Source: a virus
Virus record (IMG/VR): IMGVR_UViG_3300035104_000006
Location: 17,576-81,575 of that record
Direction: 5' to 3' (one strand)
Length of the DNA stretch: 64,000 bases
A model generated the notes under the pieces. The model saw only the letters and a program-made list of their open reading frames with translations. It ran no database searches and was not told the origin of the DNA. Positions 3,360 through 60,433 of the stretch are shown piece by piece (the stretch's first letter is position 1; each line of letters starts with the position of its first letter). Both the position numbers and the translations under genes were made by a program.

Positions 3360-4076
3360 ATGAATATAGAGTTAGTAAGTTTTACACATGAACCAATTAA
3401 AACCTGTGCAAAAGCAGCTTATAACTGTACCAATATTGGAGCAATGCCTGAAGATGTAGACGCCTACGGATTAGTAGAAAGAGTACTAGCACTAGGGCAC
3501 GAAAGTATTGCTGAGTTTGCTGATTTTGTATTTAAGGTGGACGGTCTAAGTAGGGTAGCTAGTCACCAGCTAGTTCGACATAGGGTAGCTAGTTATGCTC
3601 AGCAAAGCCAAAGATATAATACATACGAACATCTAAATATAGTTATTCCAAATGAGTTAAATGAAGAGCAGGCAGAAAAACTTAAACAAGCTGCTTCTTT
3701 TTGCCACCAAGTATACCTAGAACTGGTAAATGAAGGAGTATCTGGGGAATCCGCGAGATATATCCTACCTAATTCGGCTGTATCTAGTATATTTGTAAAG
3801 ATGAATGCTAGAGAGCTGAGGCATTTCTTTAGAATGAGATTGTGCCTAACTACCCAAGCAGAAATTCGCAGTATGGCTCAGGCAATGTATGAAGTACTAA
3901 GAACTAATTTTCCAGCTCTTTTTGTAGGCCAATTTCCTCCTTGCGGTACAAAAGGAGAATGTAAAAAATGTCCGGGGGTGAATAAAAATGACAATACAGC
4001 AAAAGTTAGGTTTGAGAAATCTGAGCAAGCCAAACCAAATAATGAAGTCCAAAAAGACTTATTCGAGGAAGTTTAA
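3360..4076 (+). CDS. thyX: FAD-dependent thymidylate synthase
   Basis: GHES, SHQLVRHRVASYAQQSQRY, ARYILP, NARELRHFF motifs. Confidence 0.95.
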   Translation: MNIELVSFTHEPIKTCAKAAYNCTNIGAMPEDVDAYGLVERVLALGHESIAEFADFVFKVDGLSRVASHQLVRHRVASYAQQSQRYNTYEHLNIVIPNELNEEQAEKLKQAASFCHQVYLELVNEGVSGESARYILPNSAVSSIFVKMNARELRHFFRMRLCLTTQAEIRSMAQAMYEVLRTNFPALFVGQFPPCGTKGECKKCPGVNKNDNTAKVRFEKSEQAKPNNEVQKDLFEEV

Positions 4077-4104
4077 ACACCATAATCGTAAAGGTTGGTA
4101 ATAT

Positions 4105-4368
4105 ATGGTAGGAAACTTAGATGATACTTTTGCCTTCAATAAAGCCATAGAGTCCTTAGAAGAGATAATTGAATTGCAAGAAGGGGCTGCTTTTCCATAC
4201 GAGGAAAGAACCCAAGAAGCTTTTAAAGAGGCCCTAAAAGCTTTTGAAACAGCCAGTACCTACGCTACTAGAATTTCCCGGTTGCTTAAAAAGGAAGACT
4301 ACGAAACTACGTTTCATACGCTTCTAGAAAGAGACTTAGCTGAAATAGAAGAACTATTTAATGGCTAA
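4105..4368 (+). CDS. hypothetical protein
   Basis: ORF track. Confidence 0.55.
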   Translation: MVGNLDDTFAFNKAIESLEEIIELQEGAAFPYEERTQEAFKEALKAFETASTYATRISRLLKKEDYETTFHTLLERDLAEIEELFNG

Positions 4369-4377
4369 AAATAGTTC

Positions 4378-4406
4378 TTGACAATTTTCTCAATATTCGC
4401 TATAAT
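4378..4406 (+). promoter_or_regulatory. sigma70 promoter, repeated module copy
   Basis: TTGACA-attttctcaatattcgc-TATAAT, identical core at 7023, 8018, 8555. Confidence 0.9.
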
Positions 4407-4438
4407 AGTATTATAAACAATAGCGAAAGGAGAAAATT

Positions 4439-4669
4439 ATGACTAGGGAAAATATTATTAACATTCTTCGTAATTCTGAAGCAACAGTAACATTTCTTAA
4501 AAAAGACGGGTCAAAACGTGTTATGAAATGTACACTTCGCCCAGATGTACTGCCCGCTCTAAAAGGCTCAAATCATAAGAAGAATGAAGATGTACTTCCA
4601 GTATGGGACTTAGAGAAAAATGCTTGGAGGTCTTTCCGCCTAGATAGTATTATAAAAATAGGAGATTAG
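4439..4669 (+). CDS. SH3-fold WYL_2/DUF2693-like protein
   Basis: VTFLKKDGSKRVMKCTL...WDLEKNAWRSFRLDS motif. Confidence 0.75.
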   Translation: MTRENIINILRNSEATVTFLKKDGSKRVMKCTLRPDVLPALKGSNHKKNEDVLPVWDLEKNAWRSFRLDSIIKIGD

Positions 4670-4670
4670 A

Positions 4671-4886
4671 TTGATTGATAATGTTAACAAAATTGAGGAA
4701 TATCTAAGAGATTCTCTAATTGCACTGGAAACAATACGAGCAATTACTAAAAAAGATGAACATAGTGAAATAATTAATGTATTTCTCCAAAAGATGGAGA
4801 ATTCATTAGTTAAAGTAGCGGAATGTAACTTAGAGATTACCGATTCTTGCGGTAAACCAAAATCACGATGTATTTCCTTTAACTAA
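4671..4886 (+). CDS. hypothetical protein
   Basis: ORF track, AGGAG RBS. Confidence 0.45.
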   Translation: MIDNVNKIEEYLRDSLIALETIRAITKKDEHSEIINVFLQKMENSLVKVAECNLEITDSCGKPKSRCISFN

Positions 4887-4962
4887 GCGAGTGTAGTCCA
4901 ACGGCAGAGACAATGGACTTAAAATCCATAAAGTGAGGATTCGAATTCCTCCACTCGCACCA
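4887..4962 (+). tRNA. tRNA-Leu(TAA), short variable loop, encoded CCA
   Basis: GCGAGTG/CACTCGC acceptor, ATGGA-CT TAA AA-TCCAT anticodon arm, TTCGAAT T-loop, ACCA end. Confidence 0.9.
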
Positions 4963-10222: not shown

Positions 10223-10298
10223 CGGAGTGTAGCTCAGTTGGGAGAGTAACCGCCTTGGACGCGGGAAGTCGCAGATTCGAGTTCTGCCACTCCGACCA
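10223..10298 (+). tRNA. tRNA-Pro(TGG), encoded CCA
   Basis: CGGAGTG/CACTCCG acceptor, CT TGG AC loop, TTCGAGT T loop. Confidence 0.92.
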
Positions 10299-15758: not shown

Positions 15759-18298
15759 AGTAGCAATAGTTGAAGTTAAACCTAGTAAGAATGACTATAA
15801 AGAACTTTTCAATAATGAGTTTGAATTCGATCTTTATAGGCTTACTTCTAATCCAGACTTGAAAAAAGTACTACGTAAAGATGTTGATATTGATATCAAC
15901 ACAGATGAGTACGAATTCGTAATTTTAGTTGGGTCTGAGTCTCTAAAGTATTTTACAAAGTACACAGCAATTACTTCTTATTCAGGAAGATTAGTAGATG
16001 ATAAATTTCTTCCAGTTTTGAACCCAGCAATGATTAGGTTTAAGCCAGAAGCTAAAAAACCTTGGATTGAAGCTAGAAACAAGATTATTAAGTATGTGAA
16101 AGGTGAAGCTTCCGAGGCTGAAATTGATAGAAGCCAATTCATCGGTATAGAAGATGAAGAGGAAGCATTGAAATACGTAAAAAATGCTATAAACTATGAC
16201 GACGATGATGTTATAGGGCTTGACTCTGAAACATCTGCGTTGTACCCTCGAAATGGGGAAATTCTTGGCATATCTCTGACGTATAAGCCCGACTCTGGGG
16301 CTTACATCTCAGCAGATTGCATATCCCCTGAGGTAGAAGAAGCTCTACAAATGCTCTTTGATAAAAAGGCTGTAGTCTTTCATAATGCTAAATTTGACCT
16401 CGCTTTCTTTGAATACCACTTCGGCTTTAAGTTTCCTAACTTTCAAGATACAATGTTGATGCATTATACTCTTGATGAAACTCAGGGTAGCCATGGTCTA
16501 AAAGAATTAGCAATGAAGTTCACTAAGTATGGAGACTATGAACAAGAACTAGTAGAGTGGCGAGAAAACTACTGTAGAAAGAATAGAATTAGAAAAGGGG
16601 ACTTTACCTATGATCTAATTCCTTTCGATATAATGTACTATTATGCCGCGATAGATTCCTGCGTGGCTTATATGCTCTACAAGAAGTTCAAATCCTATTT
16701 GGATAGGAACGAACGTCTTACTAATGTATACAGAAACATTCTACTGCCAGGCTGTAGGTTCTTAACAGATATTCAAGATAATGGGGTTCCTTTCGATAAA
16801 GATAGGTTGCTATTCTCTCAAAAAATGATGGAAGAGCAGATTGCTGCAGCAGTAGAAGGTCTATCTAAATTTCCAGAAATCGCTAAAATGGAAGAAGATA
16901 CTGGAAAACAGTTTAACCCTAATAGCACTATTCAGCTCAGGAAACTACTGTTTGATTATGTAGGTCTTAAGCCCACAGGTAAACTAACTGGTAAGGGAGC
17001 ACATTCTACAGATTCTGAAGTACTTGAACAGCTTTCAGAAAAACATGAGATTCCAAAGTATATTCTAGAACTAAGGAAAAGTTTGAAGATTAAATCCACT
17101 TATATTGATAAAATTATACCTCAGCTTGACAGAGATAGTAGACTACGGACTAATTTTAATCTTCATATGACTACCAGTGGGAGGCTGTCTTCTTCAGGTA
17201 AGCTTAATATGCAGCAACTTCCTCGCGATAACCCTACTGTCAAGGGTTGTATAAAAGCAAGACCAGGGTATAAAATTGTTGCAATGGATTTGTGATAAAG
17301 TCCCCTATATTGGTAACAATATAGTGAAAACTCCTCTAATTGCTGGAAACCCCTTAGAGCTTTCTAGGCTACAACGTGGTCTGCAAAGACGAGCGTGAAT
17401 GCTTAAAAACTAGGAAGATTGGGCAATCAGCAGCTAAGACTCTATTAATAGAGTAAAGTTCAGAGACTATCCGAAAGGAGTAGGGGTTACAAACCTCGAA
17501 ACGGGGAGCAACCTAAACAGGTTGAAGATATAGTCCGGCCCTTTTTGAAAAATTAGGGATTAACCGTTAACCACAGCAGAGATGTATTATGCAGCAGTTC
17601 TTTCCGATGACCTTACACTGCAAGATGTATTTAAAAGTGGAGGAAACTTTCACTCCGCGATTGCTAAGAAAGTGTTCAATCTTAAATGTCCGGTAGAAGA
17701 GGTTGCCGAATCACACTCCGAGCTTCGTCAAGCCTGTAAGGCTATTTCCTTCGGAATCCTTTACGGGGCTTCTCCACAAAAGATAGCCGATACAGCAGGT
17801 TTATCAGTAAGTAAAGCCAAACAAGTTATTGATGATTATTTTGGAACTTTTTGGAAATTGAAAGAATGGATTGATGAGACTAGAGATTTTATCCAAACAA
17901 ATGCCTACGTCTATTCTCCCTTTGGTCGAAAACGTAGACTCCCAAATGTTAAATCCTCAGATAGAGGGATTGTCGGTCATGAACTTAGATCGGGCTTAAA
18001 TTTTATAATTCAGTCGGTTAGTTCAGATATTAACCTACTAGCTGGTATTGATACACATAATGAGATAAAAGAGAAAAATATGGGAGCTAAAATCTTTGCT
18101 CTTGTACATGACTCTATACTAGCAGAAGTCCCAGAAGAGGAAGTTGATGAATATTGTACAATGCTTGAATATCATACCCAAAAGGACAGAGGGGTAGGTA
18201 TCCCAGGCACTCCAGTAGGATGTGACTTCGATATTGCGGACGACTACTCGCTAGGCAAGTTTGAGAAATTTTATGCAGATAGACTACAGGCAACTTAA
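15751..18298 (+). CDS. polA: family A DNA polymerase, exons 15751-17289 and 17567-18298 (756 aa spliced)
   Basis: 3'-5' exo DSET/HNAKFD; TTSGRLSS; splicing restores motif A IVAMD|LTTAEMYYAA; motif B KAISFGILYG; motif C VHDS. Confidence 0.95.
17290..17566 (+). ncRNA. group I intron (277 nt, no ORF)
   Basis: P AATTGCTGGAAAC, Q AATCAGCAG, R GTTCAGAGACTA, S AAGATATAGTCC; P1 GGAT/GTCC with U.G at the splice site; terminal G. Confidence 0.95.
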
Positions 18299-51691: not shown

Positions 51692-51805
51692 TGAAACATC
51701 TTTTTAGAATATCAACAAAGAAGAGTAATGTTTGGTCTAATGTAAATCTCAAACCAGTTTATTATGTAGCTACAAGTAAAGAAGCAGCTTCAGAAAGGAT
51801 AACCG

Positions 51806-51979
51806 ATGCAATGCCCTCAATGTGAAAAAGAGACAGAGCATAGACACGTACACGACTGCATACATGGTCTACCCTACTGTCACATGGCGGATAGCGAGCG
51901 GTATGAGTGTCTTGTATGTGGTTATGCAGTTTATAAACACGTGGGAGAGCAGCAAGGATTAAAATACATCTTGGATTAA
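51806..51979 (+). CDS. small zinc-ribbon protein (57 aa, not in ORF track)
   Basis: Hand translation MQCPQC...ECLVCG. Confidence 0.55.
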   Translation: MQCPQCEKETEHRHVHDCIHGLPYCHMADSERYECLVCGYAVYKHVGEQQGLKYILD

Positions 51980-52105
51980 CTGGAAAATACATTTGGAGGC
52001 TGCTAAATTTTGTGGATATTGAAATGAAGAACTAGAAAAATTGGTTGTTGGATTAGATTATCTAAAGTCATCTACTATAAAAACGGTAATAGAAGGAGAT
52101 TAAAC

Positions 52106-52379: not shown

Positions 52380-52665
52380 ATGGATTTCAATGTAGCATTT
52401 GAAAACTTAGAAAAGAAATTCATCAGTGGTAATTCTATTCCTGTAGTACGTTCAGTTATCACTCATGAAGAATGGGAAGCTATTAAGAAGGAATTAGAGG
52501 AGTGTAGGAAACAAGGCAAACCCCACCTGATAATTGATTTTAATGGTTTTAACTATAGCTCCTATAGTGTTATGGATAAAAGCTAATAATATCCAAGTGT
52601 TAAATGTGGCTGGAAACAGGAATAGTGGGTACTTTGAAGAAGAGGTAACACTATTATTAAAATAA
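52380..52665 (+). pseudogene. ORF with SGNSIPV N-terminus and SLOG/MoCo-carrier-like C-terminal fragment after a +1 frameshift (~52561)
   Basis: Shifted frame reads WIKANNIQVLNVAGNR. Confidence 0.45.
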
Positions 52666-52668
52666 GTG

Positions 52669-52697
52669 TTCACAAAAGCGACAAATAGTGATATAGT
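52669..52697 (+). promoter_or_regulatory. sigma70 promoter with extended -10 upstream of the cassette array
   Basis: TTCACA-17-TGn TATAGT. Confidence 0.6.
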
Positions 52698-52971
52698 AAA
52701 CCTAGATGATATCTTTTAGTTAGAGGCAACGAAATGAAAAAATGCTCATAATAGGAAATGTTTCAAATGCAGTCATAAAAGATTTAAAGAATATGGGGTA
52801 TGAAATAATTCGCTATAATTATGATCCTAAAGAGATTCTTGGTAAAGAGTTCGACTTAGTTTGGATTCGTGAACACATAACAAGCAAAAATAGAAAGGTA
52901 AGTTGAGTTGCGGTAAGCCGCCGAAGGCGGAGGTTTAAGGTTCAAGGTGTCAGGTCCAAGGTTAAAACCCA

Positions 52972-53028
52972 AAATAACCCTGCAATAAGCGGCGGCGATA
53001 GCCGTCCAGCTTGATTGCGTTGTTATAT
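52972..53028 (-). repeat. attC-like site 1 (57 bp)
   Basis: Minus strand: ATATAAC-AACGC-AATCAAGC...GCTTATT-GCAGG-GTTATTT, extrahelical C in L''. Confidence 0.8.
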
Positions 53029-53045
53029 GACACATAGGAGATAAT

Positions 53046-53822
53046 ATGATTAACTTAATGCTAGGCGATTGCCTCGAAAGAATGAAAGAAATACCAGATG
53101 GCAGTATTGATTTGACTGTTACAAGCCCTCCATACGATAACCTGCGTACCTACAATAACACGCTGGATTGGGGCGAACATGTTTGGAAGCCTGTGCTACA
53201 GGATTTGTTTAGAGTAACAAAGCAGGGTGGCGTTGTTGTTTGGGTGGTTGGGGATGCAACGATAAAAGGAAGCGAAACAGGGACGAGTTTTAAGCAGGCT
53301 TTGTATGCGAAAGATTGTGGGTTTAATTTACATGACACGATGATATGGAATAAAGGAAATTTCACAGCGGTTGGTGCATTGAAAACGTCTTACGCACCTG
53401 TATTTGAGTACATGTTTGTGTTTGGTAAAGGAAGGCCGAAAACATTTAGCCCTATCAAAGACCGCAAGAACAAACACTTTGGCGACAAATACCACCAAAC
53501 AGTGCGTCAGGCAGATGGTACAACAAAAGATGGCCACGGTAAGGGCAAGAAAAGAATTGCCGAGTTTGGCCAGCGGCACAATATCTGGTTTATTCACCCA
53601 GAACAAAGTAACTCTAAACGATGTCACCCAGCTCAATTCCCAGAGCAATTAGCACGCGACCATATTATATCTTGGAGCAACGAAGGAGACACTATACTAG
53701 ATTGTTTTATGGGTAGCGGCACAACCGGAAAAATGGCAAAGCAATTAAACCGCAATTTTATAGGTATAGAGAAAGATGAAACATACTTTAAGATTGCACA
53801 AGAGCGGATTGGTGTCATATAA
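53046..53822 (+). CDS. cassette 1: N4C/N6A DNA methyltransferase (beta class)
   Basis: GDCLE, TSPPY, HPAQFP, LDCFMGSGTT; stop TAA inside TAAC box. Confidence 0.9.
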   Translation: MINLMLGDCLERMKEIPDGSIDLTVTSPPYDNLRTYNNTLDWGEHVWKPVLQDLFRVTKQGGVVVWVVGDATIKGSETGTSFKQALYAKDCGFNLHDTMIWNKGNFTAVGALKTSYAPVFEYMFVFGKGRPKTFSPIKDRKNKHFGDKYHQTVRQADGTTKDGHGKGKKRIAEFGQRHNIWFIHPEQSNSKRCHPAQFPEQLARDHIISWSNEGDTILDCFMGSGTTGKMAKQLNRNFIGIEKDETYFKIAQERIGVI

Positions 53823-53882
53823 CGTTTAAGTTAAGTGGTTGCCGGGCAGTTTCGGCAATCCAACTTGAACGACTGGTTAGCC
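53817..53882 (-). repeat. attC-like site 2 (66 bp)
   Basis: Minus strand: GGCTAAC-CAGTC-GTTCAAGT...ACTTAAC-TTAAAC-GTTATAT. Confidence 0.88.
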
Positions 53883-53912
53883 ACCACAACCAACAATGTA
53901 AGGAGATTTAAA

Positions 53913-54209
53913 ATGGACAATGCACAAATTGAAATGCCGAAGTACAGAAGCCACAAGGAAGTATGGGCGCTTAAAATCGCTGATGTGAAAAAAGACAGCG
54001 ATATGGCTGCAAAAGAAAACCAGGAAACTGACGGAAGCGCAACGCTCGTTTTTGAAGATGGGCGGTATGCTCCCGTCAAAGTGCCCCACGATTACGTCCG
54101 CAAGCACAACCCACAGCCGGGCGGTTACTATGTAGTTTATAAGGATGGCTACAAGTCGTGGTCGCCTGCCGAAGCGTTCGAGTCAGGCTACGCCAAAATA
54201 AGCGGCTAA
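53913..54209 (+). CDS. cassette 2: conserved phage protein (GYYVVYKDGYKSWSP..AFE.GY motif)
   Basis: AAGGAG RBS; stop in GGCTAAC. Confidence 0.8.
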   Translation: MDNAQIEMPKYRSHKEVWALKIADVKKDSDMAAKENQETDGSATLVFEDGRYAPVKVPHDYVRKHNPQPGGYYVVYKDGYKSWSPAEAFESGYAKISG

Positions 54210-54303
54210 CCAATCGTTCACTTTGACCGGGAAAGCGGCGCGGTTCTTTGGCAGCTTGAAAATTCCGTTTCGCTTCCCCGGCAAGTGAACTCAACCGTTA
54301 GGC
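54204..54303 (+). repeat. attC-like site 3 (100 bp, canonical polarity)
   Basis: GGCTAAC-CAATC-GTTCACTT..CCGGG...CCCGG.AAGTGAAC-TCAACC-GTTAGGC. Confidence 0.82.
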
Positions 54304-54330
54304 GTACTCTATTTTTTGGAGGAAAGCAGA

Positions 54331-54588
54331 ATGGGATATTGCGTTTGTGGGGAAAGCAGCCCGATTTGTTTCTGTTCCGGGCAGAACGGGCGAGGCAAAA
54401 GCACGAAACAGTGGAAATATTTCGAGTTTGAGCAGTGCCCATGGTGCGGCAACGATATTGATGTATTGACAGATGCCCCAGTTGGATATGTACAGGACGG
54501 GGATGCTGTGCGGTGCGTCGATGCCAACTGCGGTTTCAGATCTAGTGTGTCTGTTGATGACGAAGAAATCTGGATTCAAGACGCATAA
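54331..54588 (+). CDS. cassette 3: Cys-rich zinc-binding protein
   Basis: GGAGG RBS; CPWC...C...C; stop in GCATAAC. Confidence 0.7.
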   Translation: MGYCVCGESSPICFCSGQNGRGKSTKQWKYFEFEQCPWCGNDIDVLTDAPVGYVQDGDAVRCVDANCGFRSSVSVDDEEIWIQDA

Positions 54589-54673
54589 CGACCATGTTAA
54601 GCGGTCGGTGGCTGATGGACGGAACACTAGAAGGCAGACGATGTATTCCATCCGCTTGAACTAATTGTTAGTT
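54583..54673 (-). repeat. attC-like site 4 (91 bp)
   Basis: Plus strand: GCATAAC-GACCAT-GTTAAGC...GCTTGAAC-TAATT-GTTAGTT. Confidence 0.85.
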
Positions 54674-54699
54674 TGAGCTGCTGAGAAGAGGAGAATTAC

Positions 54700-54909
54700 A
54701 TGAGAAAAACAGTATGTAAAAAATGCGGATCAAAGATTATTGAGAACGACAGAAACCCAAATGTGCATTACTCGAATCCACGAGAAATTTGCTGGCGGTG
54801 CGAAGCAGAAGAAGAAGCCCCAATAGGGGCGTGGCTGCAAAGAAAAGACGGATCATATTACCGAAAGCGGGGAGGACGACATGAGCAACCAATACGACAA
54901 CAAAACTAA
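54700..54909 (+). CDS. cassette 4 gene a: zinc-ribbon protein
   Basis: CKKC...CWRC; GAGGAG RBS. Confidence 0.65.
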   Translation: MRKTVCKKCGSKIIENDRNPNVHYSNPREICWRCEAEEEAPIGAWLQRKDGSYYRKRGGRHEQPIRQQN

Positions 54910-55141
54910 GCTACGGGACCTGATACCAAACGGAGACGGCTACAACAGCGAGTACGCAAACACGCTGGCAGAAGCCGCCGAATATATCGAGCGACTGGAA
55001 GATCGGCTGTTTGCCGCTGGCGCGATGGAGCAAGCGCCGTGTTTCTGCTGCGGGTACAACGGGCCTGGGTACTACCAGCCGGGCTCCCATCCGTGCGCGA
55101 AACGGCACCACGAACTGCGGCACGGCGTGAGCGAAATCTAA
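54881..55141 (+). CDS. cassette 4 gene b: phage hypothetical (CFCCGYNGPGYYQP..HPCA)
   Basis: GGAGG RBS; stop in ATCTAAC. Confidence 0.7.
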   Translation: MSNQYDNKTKLRDLIPNGDGYNSEYANTLAEAAEYIERLEDRLFAAGAMEQAPCFCCGYNGPGYYQPGSHPCAKRHHELRHGVSEI

Positions 55142-55205
55142 CGACAAAATCACCTACTGAATGGAGCGTAGCGGAATGAAGTCAGTGTGCATTTTTTTGT
55201 TGTGT
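55136..55205 (-). repeat. attC-like site 5 (70 bp)
   Basis: ATCTAAC...AATCAC..ACTGA/TCAGT GTG C ATT...GTTGTGT; GGAGCGTAGCGGAATG terminal structure. Confidence 0.65.
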
Positions 55206-55346
55206 GCTTTCCTGTGGGGGGCATACGCCATAAGACGACAAATCAGGCTGTACGGCTGGTCCTGGTGGCGGGTGCCGCTGGTCGCCGCCGTGAACACTGC
55301 GCTTTGGCCCCTGTGCATGGTGATTGCTATCATCAGAGGCGAATAG
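55161..55346 (+). CDS. cassette 5: small membrane protein
   Basis: Two hydrophobic stretches; start lies within attC 5. Confidence 0.5.
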   Translation: MERSGMKSVCIFLLCAFLWGAYAIRRQIRLYGWSWWRVPLVAAVNTALWPLCMVIAIIRGE

Positions 55347-55347
55347 C

Positions 55348-55408
55348 GCACAACAATTGAGTTAAAGCGCCGACTGAAAGGAGGTCGATTTTGAACGACT
55401 TGTTAGCT
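55348..55408 (-). repeat. attC-like site 6 (61 bp)
   Basis: Plus strand: GCACAAC-AATTGA-GTTAAAG...TTTTGAAC-GACTT-GTTAGCT. Confidence 0.85.
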
Positions 55409-55609
55409 CGGTTTGGCGACCGGGAAGAAACGATTTATAGCGCAGAATTGTATCTGTTACGCAAGATCGCAGAAACCAGCAGCGACATGGTGAAAGCCCG
55501 TGATTGGGAAGAATTTCGTGTTGCGTGTGGCGGACAGGAAAAGCTGGACAAAGCCCACGCGGATGCGCTGCGCGAATACGAACAATGGCTCTCTGATGGA
55601 GAGGGCTAA
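55391..55609 (+). CDS. cassette 6: hypothetical protein
   Basis: AAAGGAGG RBS and TTG start inside attC 6; stop in GGCTAAC. Confidence 0.6.
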   Translation: MNDLLARFGDREETIYSAELYLLRKIAETSSDMVKARDWEEFRVACGGQEKLDKAHADALREYEQWLSDGEG

Positions 55610-55679
55610 CAAGGAATCAGTTTCATAATCCTCAGATATTGTTACCTCCCCACTCTAGTGGAAGGAAAAGAGAATAATA

Positions 55680-56849
55680 ATGAATAAAGTGTATGTAGTT
55701 GATACAAATGTATTCGCACATGATTATCATGCTATTGACAATTTATCGTCTAAATCTGCAAGGATAGTAATTCCCTATGTCGTTCTGGAAGAATTGGATG
55801 GATTGAAAATCCGTCAGGATCAGACTGGGAGAAACGCCCGTCATGCAATACGAAGAATTGAAGAATTAGAAAAGAGCGGTAAAGTATTCATCGCTGATGA
55901 TCCAACAGATTACTGGATTAAAAATAATGATGATAAAATAATTGCCACTGCTGTTGATGAAAGTCGTGGAGTGGATCATAACAGGGTTATTGTTCTCTCT
56001 AAAGATATCGCTTTGCGTATCAAAGCGAAAAAACATTGTTTGGAAGTGCAGGATTATAAGAACGATAGAGTAGATTCGAACCATCTTTATTCCGGTTTCG
56101 GTCTGGGTTTTCCTAATGAACTAACTATCAAAAATGGAAAAGTGGTAGATTCAGTTTCTGGCTCAGAACTGGCAAAAATAAATCCATCCGGCTTATTCGC
56201 TGCAAATATCAAACAGCAGGTTGCAATACATCATTGTATGAACAGGGAAATTCCGTTAGTAAGTCTAGTCGGGGCTGCCGGAACTGGTAAAACACTGGTC
56301 GCCATAGCTTGTGCACTAGAGGCAATAGAATGGGGGCTTTATGACAAAATAACTATCGCTCGTCCGATAATACCATTTCAGAAAGATATTGGCTTCCTTC
56401 CAGGCGATGTAGACGAAAAAATCCTGCCGTGGTTTGCGCCTATTCGTGACAACCTAAATTATCTATTCAATATCGCCGATCAAGACAGTGAAGAAAAGAA
56501 ACGTGGAAAACGGGAGCCATATGAAGAACTTGTCGACCTCGGAATTATCGAGTTTTGTCCATTAACTTATATTCGTGGTCGTTCTCTAGCTAGACAGATA
56601 ATCATTGTTGATGAATGCCAAAACGCAACTCCTAGTGAGCTTCGTACTATCCTAACACGAGTAGGAGAAGGTAGTAAGATAATTCTAACTGGAGATTACA
56701 CACAAATTGACAGTCCGTATTTATCCAGCGATACTAATGGATTGGTGTATTGTGTAGAACGGTTCAAGGACAGTGAATTGTCTGCACACGTTACACTTAC
56801 AGAATGTAAAAGATCAGAACTGGCTAGAGAGTCTGCGGAGAGGTTGTAG
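55680..56849 (+). CDS. phoH: PIN-PhoH protein (copy 2)
   Basis: VDTNV PIN, GAAGTGKT, GFLPG, RGRS, DECQ, GDYTQID. Confidence 0.92.
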   Translation: MNKVYVVDTNVFAHDYHAIDNLSSKSARIVIPYVVLEELDGLKIRQDQTGRNARHAIRRIEELEKSGKVFIADDPTDYWIKNNDDKIIATAVDESRGVDHNRVIVLSKDIALRIKAKKHCLEVQDYKNDRVDSNHLYSGFGLGFPNELTIKNGKVVDSVSGSELAKINPSGLFAANIKQQVAIHHCMNREIPLVSLVGAAGTGKTLVAIACALEAIEWGLYDKITIARPIIPFQKDIGFLPGDVDEKILPWFAPIRDNLNYLFNIADQDSEEKKRGKREPYEELVDLGIIEFCPLTYIRGRSLARQIIIVDECQNATPSELRTILTRVGEGSKIILTGDYTQIDSPYLSSDTNGLVYCVERFKDSELSAHVTLTECKRSELARESAERL

Positions 56850-57330: not shown

Positions 57331-57723
57331 ATGAAAAATGTAACTCGTGAAGCAACTACTCGTAACGAAGGTGTAACTGAACTGCTCGGCACTTATGAAA
57401 TTGTTGAGTTTGAAACTGTACAAGAGGCGATTGATAAGTTTGGAGAAGCTGTAGTTACCGGGCTGATCAATAGCCAGTATTCCACTGATGTTGCACGTAT
57501 TGCCCGTGCTGCTTTCCAGAAGGATGGCGATGTGGATGTACAGGCTGAGATTGATGCGTATGTTCCTGGACAGCGTAAGGCAAAGCCGAGCATGGCAAAA
57601 CTGATGGACATCATCGGCGACCTCGCCGCAGAAGGTAAAGCTGATGTAGTAAGTAAAGTGATTGCCCTTCAGTCTAATGAAGGTCTGGAAGCTGCTTATA
57701 ATTTCGCCCTCGAAAATAAGTAA
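57331..57723 (+). CDS. hypothetical protein, probably highly expressed
   Basis: Strong promoter, AAGGAG RBS, downstream GAGCA/TGCTC hairpin. Confidence 0.7.
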   Translation: MKNVTREATTRNEGVTELLGTYEIVEFETVQEAIDKFGEAVVTGLINSQYSTDVARIARAAFQKDGDVDVQAEIDAYVPGQRKAKPSMAKLMDIIGDLAAEGKADVVSKVIALQSNEGLEAAYNFALENK

Positions 57724-59714: not shown

Positions 59715-60433
59715 TGAAATATATGGGTAGTAAAAACAGAATAGCCAAACACATACTCCCAATTATGCTTGCAGAAAGAAAGCCAGACCAATGGTGGGTT
59801 GAGCCGTTTGTAGGTGGTGCAAATATGATTGATAAAGTAGAAGGTAATAGAATAGGTGCAGACTCAAATGAGTTTCTAATAAAAGCATTAAGGCTTATAA
59901 GAGACGAACCAACTACGATACCTGATCTTATTACCGAGGAAGATTACCAAAAAGCAAAAGACAAGATGGTGCTTAATGGATTGACTGGCTTTATTGGTTT
60001 TGCAATGAGCTTTGGCGGAAAGTGGTTTGGTGGGTATAGAAGAGATGTAGCTGGAACAAAAGGCTGCATTGAAAATATGAAAACCCAAACTCGAAGAAGT
60101 AAGCAGAATGCTATTAATCAAAGCAAATATCTAAAAGGAGTTAAGTTTATTAATAGCGATTACAAAAGCTTAGACTTGCCACAGAACAGCCTAATTTATT
60201 GTGACCCACCTTATAAGGGGACAACCAAATACAAAGATGGGTTTGACCATACCGAGTTCTGGCAATGGTGCAGAGAAAAAGCGTTTGAGGGACATACTGT
60301 ATTTGTAAGTGAGTACAATGCACCTGAGGATTTTGAGTGTATTTGGCAGAAGGGGATTACGTCTAGCCTCACAAAAAACACAGGGGCAAAGAGGGGTGTA
60401 GAGAAACTTTTTAAGCACAGGAAAGGAGAGTGA
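59714..60433 (+). CDS. D12-class N6-adenine DNA methyltransferase
   Basis: KYMGSK, EPFVGG, YCDPPY, VSEY. Confidence 0.9.
   Translation: MKYMGSKNRIAKHILPIMLAERKPDQWWVEPFVGGANMIDKVEGNRIGADSNEFLIKALRLIRDEPTTIPDLITEEDYQKAKDKMVLNGLTGFIGFAMSFGGKWFGGYRRDVAGTKGCIENMKTQTRRSKQNAINQSKYLKGVKFINSDYKSLDLPQNSLIYCDPPYKGTTKYKDGFDHTEFWQWCREKAFEGHTVFVSEYNAPEDFECIWQKGITSSLTKNTGAKRGVEKLFKHRKGE

Follow-up and report, generated by a model that had tools for sequence, protein, structure and literature searches.

Integrons have been studied as bacterial gene-capture devices, and many of their cassettes carry anti-phage defences. In bacterial arrays, whether mobile or sedentary chromosomal, attC sites consist of R''/L''/L'/R' boxes with AAC/GTT cores and a bulged base, the ends of each cassette complement its own R'' box, stop codons overlap the box, and exchange occurs at G|TT, all of which the locus described here shares. 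Bacterial integrons have an intI gene, whereas this locus has none and its cargo is phage-type. Another form of modularity is that of the T4-type promoter-early stem-loop cassettes, small phage genes that lie between conserved stem-loops and are shuffled among related phages. These elements comprise a promoter and terminator-like hairpins and are recombined by homology; they are not known to have AAC/GTT core boxes or a link to a site-specific recombinase.

The closest described systems are CALINs, groups of attC sites that lack an integron integrase. Qi et al. 2023 (Front Microbiol, PMC9892861) found 17 of them in virulent phages, with methyltransferase cargo; in that study IntI1 recombined phage attC sites, including those of PH101 and TJE1, and gene-versus-attC polarity received no comment. 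The premise of the sequence-only reading that integrons are rare or absent in phages is therefore outdated; in IMG/VR, at least 119 stretches carry a strict attC pattern. An integrase-less cassette array in a phage is a kind of locus already reported. Like the CALINs of Pseudoalteromonas phage PH101, Tetrasphaera phage TJE1 and Polaribacter phage P12002L, the present locus is a cluster of attC sites in a phage of lytic type, with no intI, and, as in published phage CALINs, its cargo comprises small ORFs of unknown function and an orphan DNA methyltransferase. PH101 is alike in two further respects: its array lies upstream of a PhoH gene, and the CDS strand there is the bottom strand, the one preferred in experiments. 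By contrast, the present locus has six sites against two to four in those three phages, its polarity is mixed (five inverted, one canonical) whereas that of TJE1 is canonical, and its phage, unlike the published CALIN phages, is uncultured, AT-rich and without nucleotide-level relatives among GenBank phages, where methyltransferase homology was the only similarity found. A possible route of cassettes into DNA without attI is insertion at non-att sites (attG, consensus G|WT), as described by Loot et al. (bioRxiv 10.1101/2022.09.11.507474) for E. coli chromosomes with IntI1-3.

The window analyzed is a stretch of 64,000 nt from IMG/VR record IMGVR_UViG_3300035104_000006. Within it, a GC-rich island of ~2.7 kb (52,972-55,610) holds six attC-type sites between seven small ORFs. 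We read this island as a CALIN built mostly of mirror-image cassettes, without an integrase, in a large virulent-type oil-field phage, and put the probability of this reading at roughly 0.78. The features are as follows.

52669..52697, plus strand: candidate sigma-70-like promoter, TTCACA-17-TATAGT with TG (consensus scan only, 10/12 matches)
52897..52971, plus strand: GC-rich leader with a short GC hairpin, common to other phage contigs
52972..53028, top strand on minus: attC site 1; R1 41.1 bits, E 2e-7; fold -14 kcal/mol, z -3.5
53046..53822, plus strand: orphan N6/N4 DNA methyltransferase, 258 aa, cargo of cassette 1; PF01555 E 8.5e-46; phrog_67
53817..53882, top strand on minus: attC site 2; R1 22.2 bits; strict aadA-type top-strand pattern on the minus strand
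53913..54209, plus strand: ORF2, 98 aa, phrog_11049 family (E 1e-27)
54204..54303, top strand on plus: attC site 3, 100 nt; assigned by hairpin, 5/6 spacer geometry and bulge side
54331..54588, plus strand: ORF3, 85 aa, Cys-rich, zinc-ribbon-like; SD and ATG
54583..54673, top strand on minus: attC site 4; R1 20.1 bits; strict aadA-type pattern match
54700..54909, plus strand: ORF4a, 69 aa, zinc-ribbon-like; SD
54881..55141, plus strand: ORF4b, 86 aa, overlapping ORF4a; SD
55136..55205, top strand on minus: attC site 5, weak; R1 19.2 bits; three unpaired R-box pairs
55161..55346, plus strand: ORF5, 61 aa, hydrophobic in translation
55348..55408, top strand on minus: attC site 6; R1 11.4 bits; relaxed pattern match on the minus strand
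55391..55609, plus strand: ORF6, 72 aa, TTG start, ending in GGCTAA|C

R1 is a covariance model derived from the top strands of 20 attC sites whose orientation was known; these came from a Vibrio integron that carries IntIA, from a Shewanella integron and from phages TJE1 and PH101. Run with default filters over both strands of the 64 kb, R1 gave four matches, all inside the island at E <= 0.04, and with filters off one further match at 55348-55408 (E 0.47). No match was obtained on the remainder of the contig and only 9 on ~930 kb of other phage loci, and a held-out TJE1 site used as a control was recovered at 38.9 bits. The sequence-only reading had listed six attC-like sites; all are present at the coordinates it gave, its observation of an attC cassette array is confirmed, and the covariance-model check that it proposed returned matches confined to the island, albeit with R1 and not with IntegronFinder's model. 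The four matches, with the fifth seen when filters were off, exceed the two model-detected attC sites expected of a CALIN (model R1 again standing in for IntegronFinder's), the largest gap, 845 bp between sites 1 and 2, is well within the 4-kb spacing, and no integron integrase lies nearby. The locus is not a complete integron, which would have intI, attI and Pc beside the array: intI is absent and the array sits between phage genes.

The R''(..AAC)/R'(GTT..) and L''/L' boxes, unpaired spacers and extrahelical base that define attC are present in sites 1, 2, 3, 4 and 6, in a layout with conserved AAC/GTT boxes, 5/6-nt spacers and a bulged base at position 16. Site 3 gave no R1 match on either strand, with filters off included; it has R/L boxes, 5/6-nt spacers and the strongest hairpin of the set (-20 to -22 kcal/mol). 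Site 5 overlaps the start of ORF5 and has boxes with a weak L stem, and its fold is no better than those of shuffles (z = +0.84). Site 6 contains the SD and TTG start of ORF6, and its homologue in four other contigs (L105, L106, L108, L109) scores 19.7 bits with R1. An initial detector based on constrained minimum-energy folds returned only sites 1 and 3 together with many terminator-like false positives and was dropped. Rfam is without an attC family; its sole matches in the window were one group I intron and two tRNAs.

The modules delimited by these sites also behave as cassettes at their ends. That the 5' end of each complements its own 3' end, as had been noted from the sequence, holds at 8-12 of 12 positions (12, 8, 9, 9, 10 and 8 in order), and over the 7-nt boxes the within-module matches (7, 7, 6, 6, 6, 6) can be set against the within-site matches (6, 4, 6, 4, 4, 3). 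Likewise, the stop of the last ORF is the TAA of the TAAC box in five of the six modules, the exception being ORF5, whose stop falls 1 nt before the box. ORF5 is probably a small membrane peptide, to judge from its translation; family searches gave no match for it.

The extrahelical-base and spacer geometry places the top strand of five of the six sites (1, 2, 4, 5 and 6) on the minus strand, and hence the genes lie on the recombinogenic bottom strand with attC 5' of the gene. The gene-then-attC layout assumed by the sequence-only reading does not hold for these five cassettes, which are mirror images with attC upstream; the alternative that all six are canonical was rejected for the five because their sites score on the strand opposite the ORFs. 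We checked the polarity rule with the Vibrio IntIA and Shewanella integrons and with TJE1, and also against the bottom strand of attC(aadA7) (Qi et al., Table S3; PMC9892861). Only ORF2 with site 3 forms a canonical cassette (53876-54297), with the ORF on the attC top strand and attC 3'. The proposed anatomy would accordingly comprise, with top strand minus, site 1 with the methyltransferase, site 2 with ORF3, site 4 with ORF4a/4b, site 5 with ORF5 and site 6 with ORF6, and the canonical ORF2-site 3 unit, of opposite polarity, would be located within the right-hand box (R'') of site 2, at the G|TTAGCC that bounds the ORF2 cassette on its left. Site 2 is assigned to ORF3 from one joint, seen in two runs. 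Since ORF2 and site 3 are canonical in the opposite polarity, all seven ORFs read rightward, and they are probably expressed by read-through from a phage promoter, for which the sigma-70-like sequence upstream of the island is a candidate.

No integron integrase (TIGR02249, E <= 10) or other PF00589 protein (E <= 1) was found on the whole 114-kb contig (~87% complete), which extends the earlier remark that the window lacks a tyrosine recombinase; searches of the L131, L180, L188, L240 and L102 records with TIGR02249 likewise found no integron integrase. With no integrase on the contig, action in trans is the only integron-type option, and the array would be acted on by a host IntI.

The same cassettes recur in other oil-field runs and IMG/VR contigs at about 80-100% identity and in other orders, spread over at least five other viral contig families. 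Homologues of ORF3 (84-95% identical) and of ORF6 (79-96%) each occur in seven IMG/VR contigs and those of ORF4a (88-94%) in L102 and L110, where the order is different. ORF3, box, site 6 and ORF6 follow one another in the four contigs with the site 6 homologue, and ORF3 is followed by site 4 in L102-L104. The unit 53876-54302 recurs in other contexts, with site 3 accompanying ORF2 in runs X5/X6 and L096; in L094/L095 the ORF2 unit begins at the same G|TTAGCC and lies between plus-strand attC sites. A methyltransferase copy ~99.7% identical was present in a soil metagenome run, and homologues of 57-74% identity (L188, L131, L180) have a homologous attC immediately upstream on the minus strand. 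In other runs, the joint 53875->54297 deletes exactly ORF2 and site 3, the joint 54590->55356 deletes cassettes 4 and 5 at left boxes, and cassette pieces reach depths of 100-290x against 4-6x for the phage flanks. Several break points thus coincide exactly with the AA|C or G|TT of a box, as was predicted for reordering at GTT/AAC boundaries. Others do not: mosaic break points at 54,330, about 54,709-54,720, 54,870 and 55,409 lie inside genes or leaders, so that general recombination also shuffles the modules. The interpretation of the sequence-only reading is therefore partly supported: the sites are attC-type, the modules behave as cassettes and recur elsewhere in other orders with break points at R boxes, and the suggested integrase elsewhere in the genome is missing from the 114-kb contig.

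The GC profile runs at ~0.31 upstream, at 0.43-0.60 over 52,900-55,650 and back to 0.35 downstream, bearing out the claim that the modules are GC-richer than their flanks. The flanking genes are phage genes encoding a metallophosphoesterase and PIN-PhoH (at 55680). At the right, AT-rich phage DNA returns within 5 nt of the GGCTAA|C end of ORF6, and the edge itself may be 5 nt beyond the box; this junction is also covered in an independent run and in JGI contig L261. At the left, the island edge (~52,897) has no att box or junction, and the block may therefore have come by ordinary phage-phage recombination. The leader runs as far as AAAATAA|C, which is site 1's left box, and L104 matches up to this point and diverges afterwards; over 52906-52994 it is 82% identical, the similarity ending past the AAAATAAC box. 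Positions 52931-52970 stand at ~180x in run X4, in several contexts. Insertion of the whole island in one event at a G|TT secondary site was considered and withdrawn, since the 75-nt stretch that precedes site 1 on the left is foreign too and common to other phages. The likeness to attG insertion thus resides in the ORF2 cassette, at G|TT within the R'' box of another site, and in the right end of the island, at or <=5 nt from AA|C (G|TT on the other strand); the left end has no such junction, and the target here is a phage. A 20-nt "empty site" joining both presumed flanks was absent from IMG/VR, no circular cassette was seen in the Logan contigs, a type of data in which circles do not show, and a PhoH-based search of IMG/VR yielded no phage relatives. 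Looking up the exact proteins of ORF2, PhoH and the 54-aa ORF upstream led back only to this phage with its array unchanged and to no array variant of its lineage, and a plasmid search gave methyltransferase homology only.

Polarity was then surveyed with one sequence pattern and a crude ORF-strand heuristic. By this measure 42 of 63 classifiable viral contigs are inverted and 21 canonical, against 5 inverted and 70 canonical among 75 metagenome contigs (Fisher p = 3e-14). Mirror-image polarity thus prevails among viral contigs and is rare among metagenome contigs at large, which suggests that inverted polarity is general in viral contigs. The pattern that is canonical in 70/75 metagenome contigs is the one that, in the island, lies upstream of genes on the bottom strand. 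R1 gave no match on six phages from the published CALIN list, MW202573, HQ632860, KT160311, NC_025466, MT066160 and P12002L; either these are weak predictions or R1 is narrower than the published models, and the published list is therefore unusable as a polarity test.

Several of these observations could be accounted for differently. The sites might be ordinary intergenic stem-loops of phages (terminators or regulatory elements, as in the T4-type cassettes) that resemble attC by convergence, and co-infecting phages might exchange the modules through homologous or illegitimate recombination alone. Break points outside the boxes, a contig without an integrase and leaders common to several contigs, including a 27-nt segment (52897-52923) that is 100% identical in L102, would fit this view. 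We consider this quite improbable, because a model derived from bona fide integrons matches only the island, the conserved boxes, spacers and position-16 bulge are retained, end complementarity is cassette-specific and reaches 12/12, and other break points are exact at AA|C and G|TT. Moreover, the attC of a related phage contig is nearly identical to the bottom strand of attC(aadA7), and Qi et al. 2023 (PMC9892861) observed IntI1 recombining phage sites of a similar kind.

The island could instead be the remnant of a bacterial chromosomal integron, acquired in a single illegitimate recombination event and now immobile with bacterial genes, but this is improbable as well. Its GC is foreign to the phage and its left junction is not at an att box, as that origin would allow, but the cargo is phage-type, as had been proposed from the sequence (phrog_67, phrog_11049, hundreds of homologues in viral contigs), and the genes run antisense to the polarity of the attC sites, which is not so in 70/75 metagenome contigs. 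In addition, the cassettes are reordered in the other viral contig families, and a search of 185,579 species genomes gave no close copy, the best match to the methyltransferase being 77%. An assembly chimera, in which shared repeats fused the DNA of an AT-rich phage with GC-rich contigs that belong to other organisms, might be suspected since many contigs of other assemblies break at the island edges and the cassettes far outnumber the phage in some runs. It is nevertheless highly improbable: JGI sample 3300035544 gave an independent assembly of the island with both flanks, a 14.2-kb JGI contig from a sample other than that of the window crosses both junctions and keeps the gene order, run X4 contigs at phage-level depth cover 52384-52928 and 55586-56149, and runs X1-X3 contain 95-98% of the words.

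Under the preferred reading, an integrase-less CALIN of mostly mirror-image cassettes, the block may have derived from GC-richer phages before reaching this AT-rich one. The integron integrase of an infected host would excise and insert cassettes through folded attC strands or G|TT secondary sites, and the cargo, which consists of an orphan methyltransferase and small proteins of phage type, would be of use to the phage, for example against restriction. A broader proposal, to which we give somewhat less than even odds, is that phages own a pool of mirror-image cassettes that co-occurring phages trade through host integron integrases. In such cassettes, attC would lie 5' of the gene, the recombinogenic bottom strand would be the coding strand, and the TAA of the upstream gene would make the cleavage box TAA|C. 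The polarity would then be no accident: in a phage genome whose transcription and replication are co-directional, the folding strand would be the non-template or lagging-template strand, and recombination should consequently be fast. With this polarity, phage genes captured by a bacterial integron would also be silent.

The contrast between 42:21 in viral and 5:70 in metagenome contigs provides a simple testable prediction, and polarity bears on how attC folding is controlled by strand choice, replication and transcription. If mirror-image arrays prove consistent and are swapped within the community, the integron integrase would serve both the phage and the host side of their conflict, and would provide a site-specific route for phage mosaicism and for the spread of anti-restriction methyltransferases and other small phage genes.

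The window derives from a 114,484-bp IMG/VR virus contig (~87% complete) that originated in oil-field metagenomes. Its GC content rises from ~0.31 to 0.43-0.60 between 52,900 and 55,650, the cassette island, and then falls back. The island adjoins metallophosphoesterase and PIN-PhoH genes and holds seven rightward ORFs, each with a Shine-Dalgarno sequence. These encode an N6/N4 DNA methyltransferase (53046-53822; PF01555, E = 8.5e-46), a phrog_11049 protein (ORF2, 53913-54209) and five small proteins (ORF3, ORF4a, ORF4b, ORF5 and ORF6) for which a family search gave no match; two of these five are zinc-ribbon-like and one is hydrophobic. Misassembly does not explain the island: a 14.2-kb contig from a different JGI sample covers both of its junctions. 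Elsewhere in the window, no attC match was found near a second DNA methyltransferase gene (59715-60420; 66-74% nucleotide identity to those of Vibrio phages and Polaribacter phage P12002L) or at another short GC spike downstream of PhoH (57400-57700; 0.48-0.50). Rfam matches in the window were as follows.

4887-4959, tRNA gene
10223-10295, tRNA gene
17282-17557, group I intron (94 bits)

Because Rfam holds no attC family, a covariance model (R1) was built from attC top strands whose orientation was set by context or experiment. The sources were the array adjoining IntIA in Vibrio phage Va_90-11-286_p16 (L001), the array beside the integron integrase of Shewanella phage M16-3 (L002) plus the same phage's CALIN (cluster of attC sites lacking integron integrase), phage TJE1 (L003) and phage PH101 (L007), the attC bottom strands of which are given in Table S3 of Qi et al. 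2023 (PMC9892861). The alignment comprised 20 sites and was clean at both ends, and a TJE1 site kept out of training was recovered at 38.9 bits. Searching both strands of the whole 64-kb window yielded four matches, namely sites 1 (52972; 41.1 bits), 2 (53817; 22.2), 4 (54583; 20.1) and 5 (55136; 19.2), and site 6 (55348) scored 11.4 bits with filters off. The other 50 kb of the contig returned no match, and other phage loci, searched as sets of 587 kb and 344 kb, gave only nine in total; the cluster in the island is therefore far above chance. Site 5 is weak, folding no better than shuffled sequences. Site 3 (54204) had no R1 match, though it forms the most stable hairpin of the six and its R and L boxes are clear. 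The complementarity that the sequence-only reading described between the ends of each module is fully borne out, at 12, 8, 9, 9, 10 and 8 of 12 positions, with more box matches within a module than within a site. In five of the six modules the stop codon of the terminal ORF is indeed the TAA of the TAAC box, and the lack of a tyrosine recombinase extends from the window to the entire 114-kb contig, where a profile search found neither this nor an integron integrase.

Phage CALINs are an already known kind of element. A screen of 10,705 phage genomes gave three integrons, one In0 and 17 CALINs, with methyltransferase cargo noted, and IntI1 recombined five phage attC sites, bottom strands better than top (Qi et al. 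2023, PMC9892861). The premise that phages rarely or never carry integrons is therefore outdated. Gene-relative attC polarity is not discussed in that work.

On the gene-bearing top strand of reference integrons, box-AAC is followed by 5 nt, three paired bases, a bulged C/T at position 16 and the remaining L stem; on the far side, 6 nt precede GTT. The bottom strand is the mirror image (CTT-G-AAC, 5 nt, GTT), in agreement with the attC(aadA7) bottom strand of Qi et al. 2023 (PMC9892861). In the island, the top-strand layout was found on the minus strand for sites 1, 2, 4 and 6 and on the plus strand for site 3. All five R1 matches (sites 1, 2, 4, 5 and 6) lie on the minus strand, and sites 2 and 4 fit a strict aadA-type top-strand pattern on that strand only. 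The recombinogenic bottom strand is therefore the one that carries the genes, and each attC comes before its gene. The architecture of the island agrees with this polarity: a complete attC (site 1) precedes the first gene, and after the last there is GGCTAA↓C alone, followed by AT-rich phage DNA. In PH101 the tested bottom strand is likewise the strand of the CDSs (gp132-gp135), and the array lies upstream of a PhoH gene, as in the window; TJE1, unlike PH101, has canonical polarity. The mirror-image polarity of the island array is probably real.

The simplest reading is five mirror-image cassettes, which would be [site 1 + methyltransferase], [site 2 + ORF3], [site 4 + ORF4a/b], [site 5 + ORF5] and [site 6 + ORF6], and one canonical cassette, [ORF2 + site 3]. 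The latter would have been inserted at G↓TT of the R'' box of site 2, the expected cut position of a folded top strand or of a double-stranded G↓WT secondary site (Loot et al., bioRxiv 10.1101/2022.09.11.507474). This arrangement accounts for all box complementarities, every site's polarity and both joints observed in sequencing runs. The joint 53875→54297 (two runs; five common letters, GTTAG) lacks exactly ORF2 and site 3, and the joint 54590→55356, in run contigs relative to the window, lacks site 4 through ORF5, with crossover at the left boxes.

Parts of the island are present in runs from other oil-field samples, where cassette pieces reach depths of 100-290x versus 4-6x for the phage flanks, so the cassettes are present in more abundant genomes too. 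A soil run contained the methyltransferase cassette at ~99.7% identity. IMG/VR contigs of 44-56% GC carry island modules in different orders: ORF3-box-site 6-ORF6 (L105, L106, L108, L109; crossover within GCATAAC/GCACAAC), ORF3-site 4 and then other genes (L102-L104), and ORF6, a 57-aa ORF (window 51,806-51,979) and ORF4a (L102, L110). In an ENA contig (L094/L095) the ORF2 cassette (87% nucleotide identity; same start, G↓TTAGCC) is flanked by two plus-strand, canonical attC sites. Methyltransferase homologues only 57-74% identical (L188, L131, L180) nevertheless have a homologous attC directly upstream, scored on the minus strand, so this gene and its attC form an old unit.

Several related modules were also observed. 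In L188, the direct repeat AACACCAACTAGCCACCAAAA lies on both sides of the methyltransferase cassette (1395-1420 and 2290-2310) and may mark tandem units or a target-duplication-like feature. The 57-aa Cys-rich ORF occupies a second GC-richer module ~1 kb upstream of the island (51793-51999), bracketed by GGATAACC and GGTTATGC, with 99% nucleotide and 100% protein identity to the L102 and L110 copies and a depth of 110-235x in run X4; it appears to be a further mobile module, one lacking a full attC. In GC-rich phage contig L064 (IMGVR_UViG_3300005681_000055, 3940-4730; also L065, L066), an ORF2 homologue is followed by an attC near-identical, on the coding strand, to the bottom strand of clinical class 1 attC(aadA7). 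The cassette-specific inverted ends match at 10/10 positions (GTTAGGCAAC and GTTGCCTAAC), and the next module likewise has inverted ends (GTTAGGGCGC and GCGCCCTAAC).

Exchange at the boxes explains only part of the variation. Both joints fall at boxes, as does the break in L104, which matches the stretch left of site 1 up to AAAATAA↓C and then differs, but several mosaic break points lie elsewhere, at the start of a gene or within one (54,330; 54,709-54,720; 54,870; 55,409). The left edge of the island lies near 52,897, 75 nt before site 1, within a segment common to other phages, and the right edge possibly 5 nt past the box. General phage-phage recombination is therefore also at work, and it may have brought the block from GC-richer phages into this AT-rich one. 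The upstream 54-aa ORF ends within a 27-nt segment (52897-52923) that recurs with 100% identity, between different flanks, in L102, an unrelated GC-rich contig; this segment could be a scar of recombination or a regulatory motif common to both. The favored reading, with a probability of about 0.8, is that these are attC cassettes of functional type and that an integron integrase provided in trans exchanges them.

A scan of IMG/VR with one strict top-strand attC pattern gave at least 119 stretches, and R1 returned 82 matches at E <= 0.1 on 80 of these loci (L274-L353); such sites are by no means rare in viral contigs. Some loci are long arrays (L300, eight R1 matches; L335, five), and among the matches listed a full IntI-like gene occurs only in L277 and L299. 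General metagenome contigs, scanned with the identical pattern, served as control. A greedy sum of ORFs within 2.5 kb set the local coding strand and was correct for all known controls.

Polarity of attC relative to genes (viral counts are among the matches listed)
Viral (IMG/VR), ORF sum, 2.5 kb: inverted 42, canonical 21, unclassified 17 contigs
Metagenome, ORF sum, 2.5 kb: inverted 5, canonical 70, unclassified 5 contigs
Viral (IMG/VR), adjacent ORF: inverted 35, canonical 17 contigs
Metagenome, adjacent ORF: inverted 7, canonical 58 contigs

Viral and metagenome contigs differed under both the ORF-sum and the adjacent-ORF rule (Fisher's exact test, p = 2.7e-14 and 1.5e-10, respectively), a contrast that is large even though the survey was quick, used a single pattern and an ORF heuristic, and scored at least one true integron (L299) as inverted. 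A non-exhaustive literature search found no earlier description of it. Among the matches listed, a bottom-strand ORF stops exactly in the box TAA at 24 of 46 inverted viral sites, the mirror of the bacterial habit. As a tentative explanation, to which we give slightly less than even odds, the mirror-image polarity may reflect a cassette pool specific to phages and have an adaptive or mechanistic basis: the folding strand could come to lie on the non-template strand or the lagging-template strand, or phage genes could stay silent once captured by a bacterial integron.
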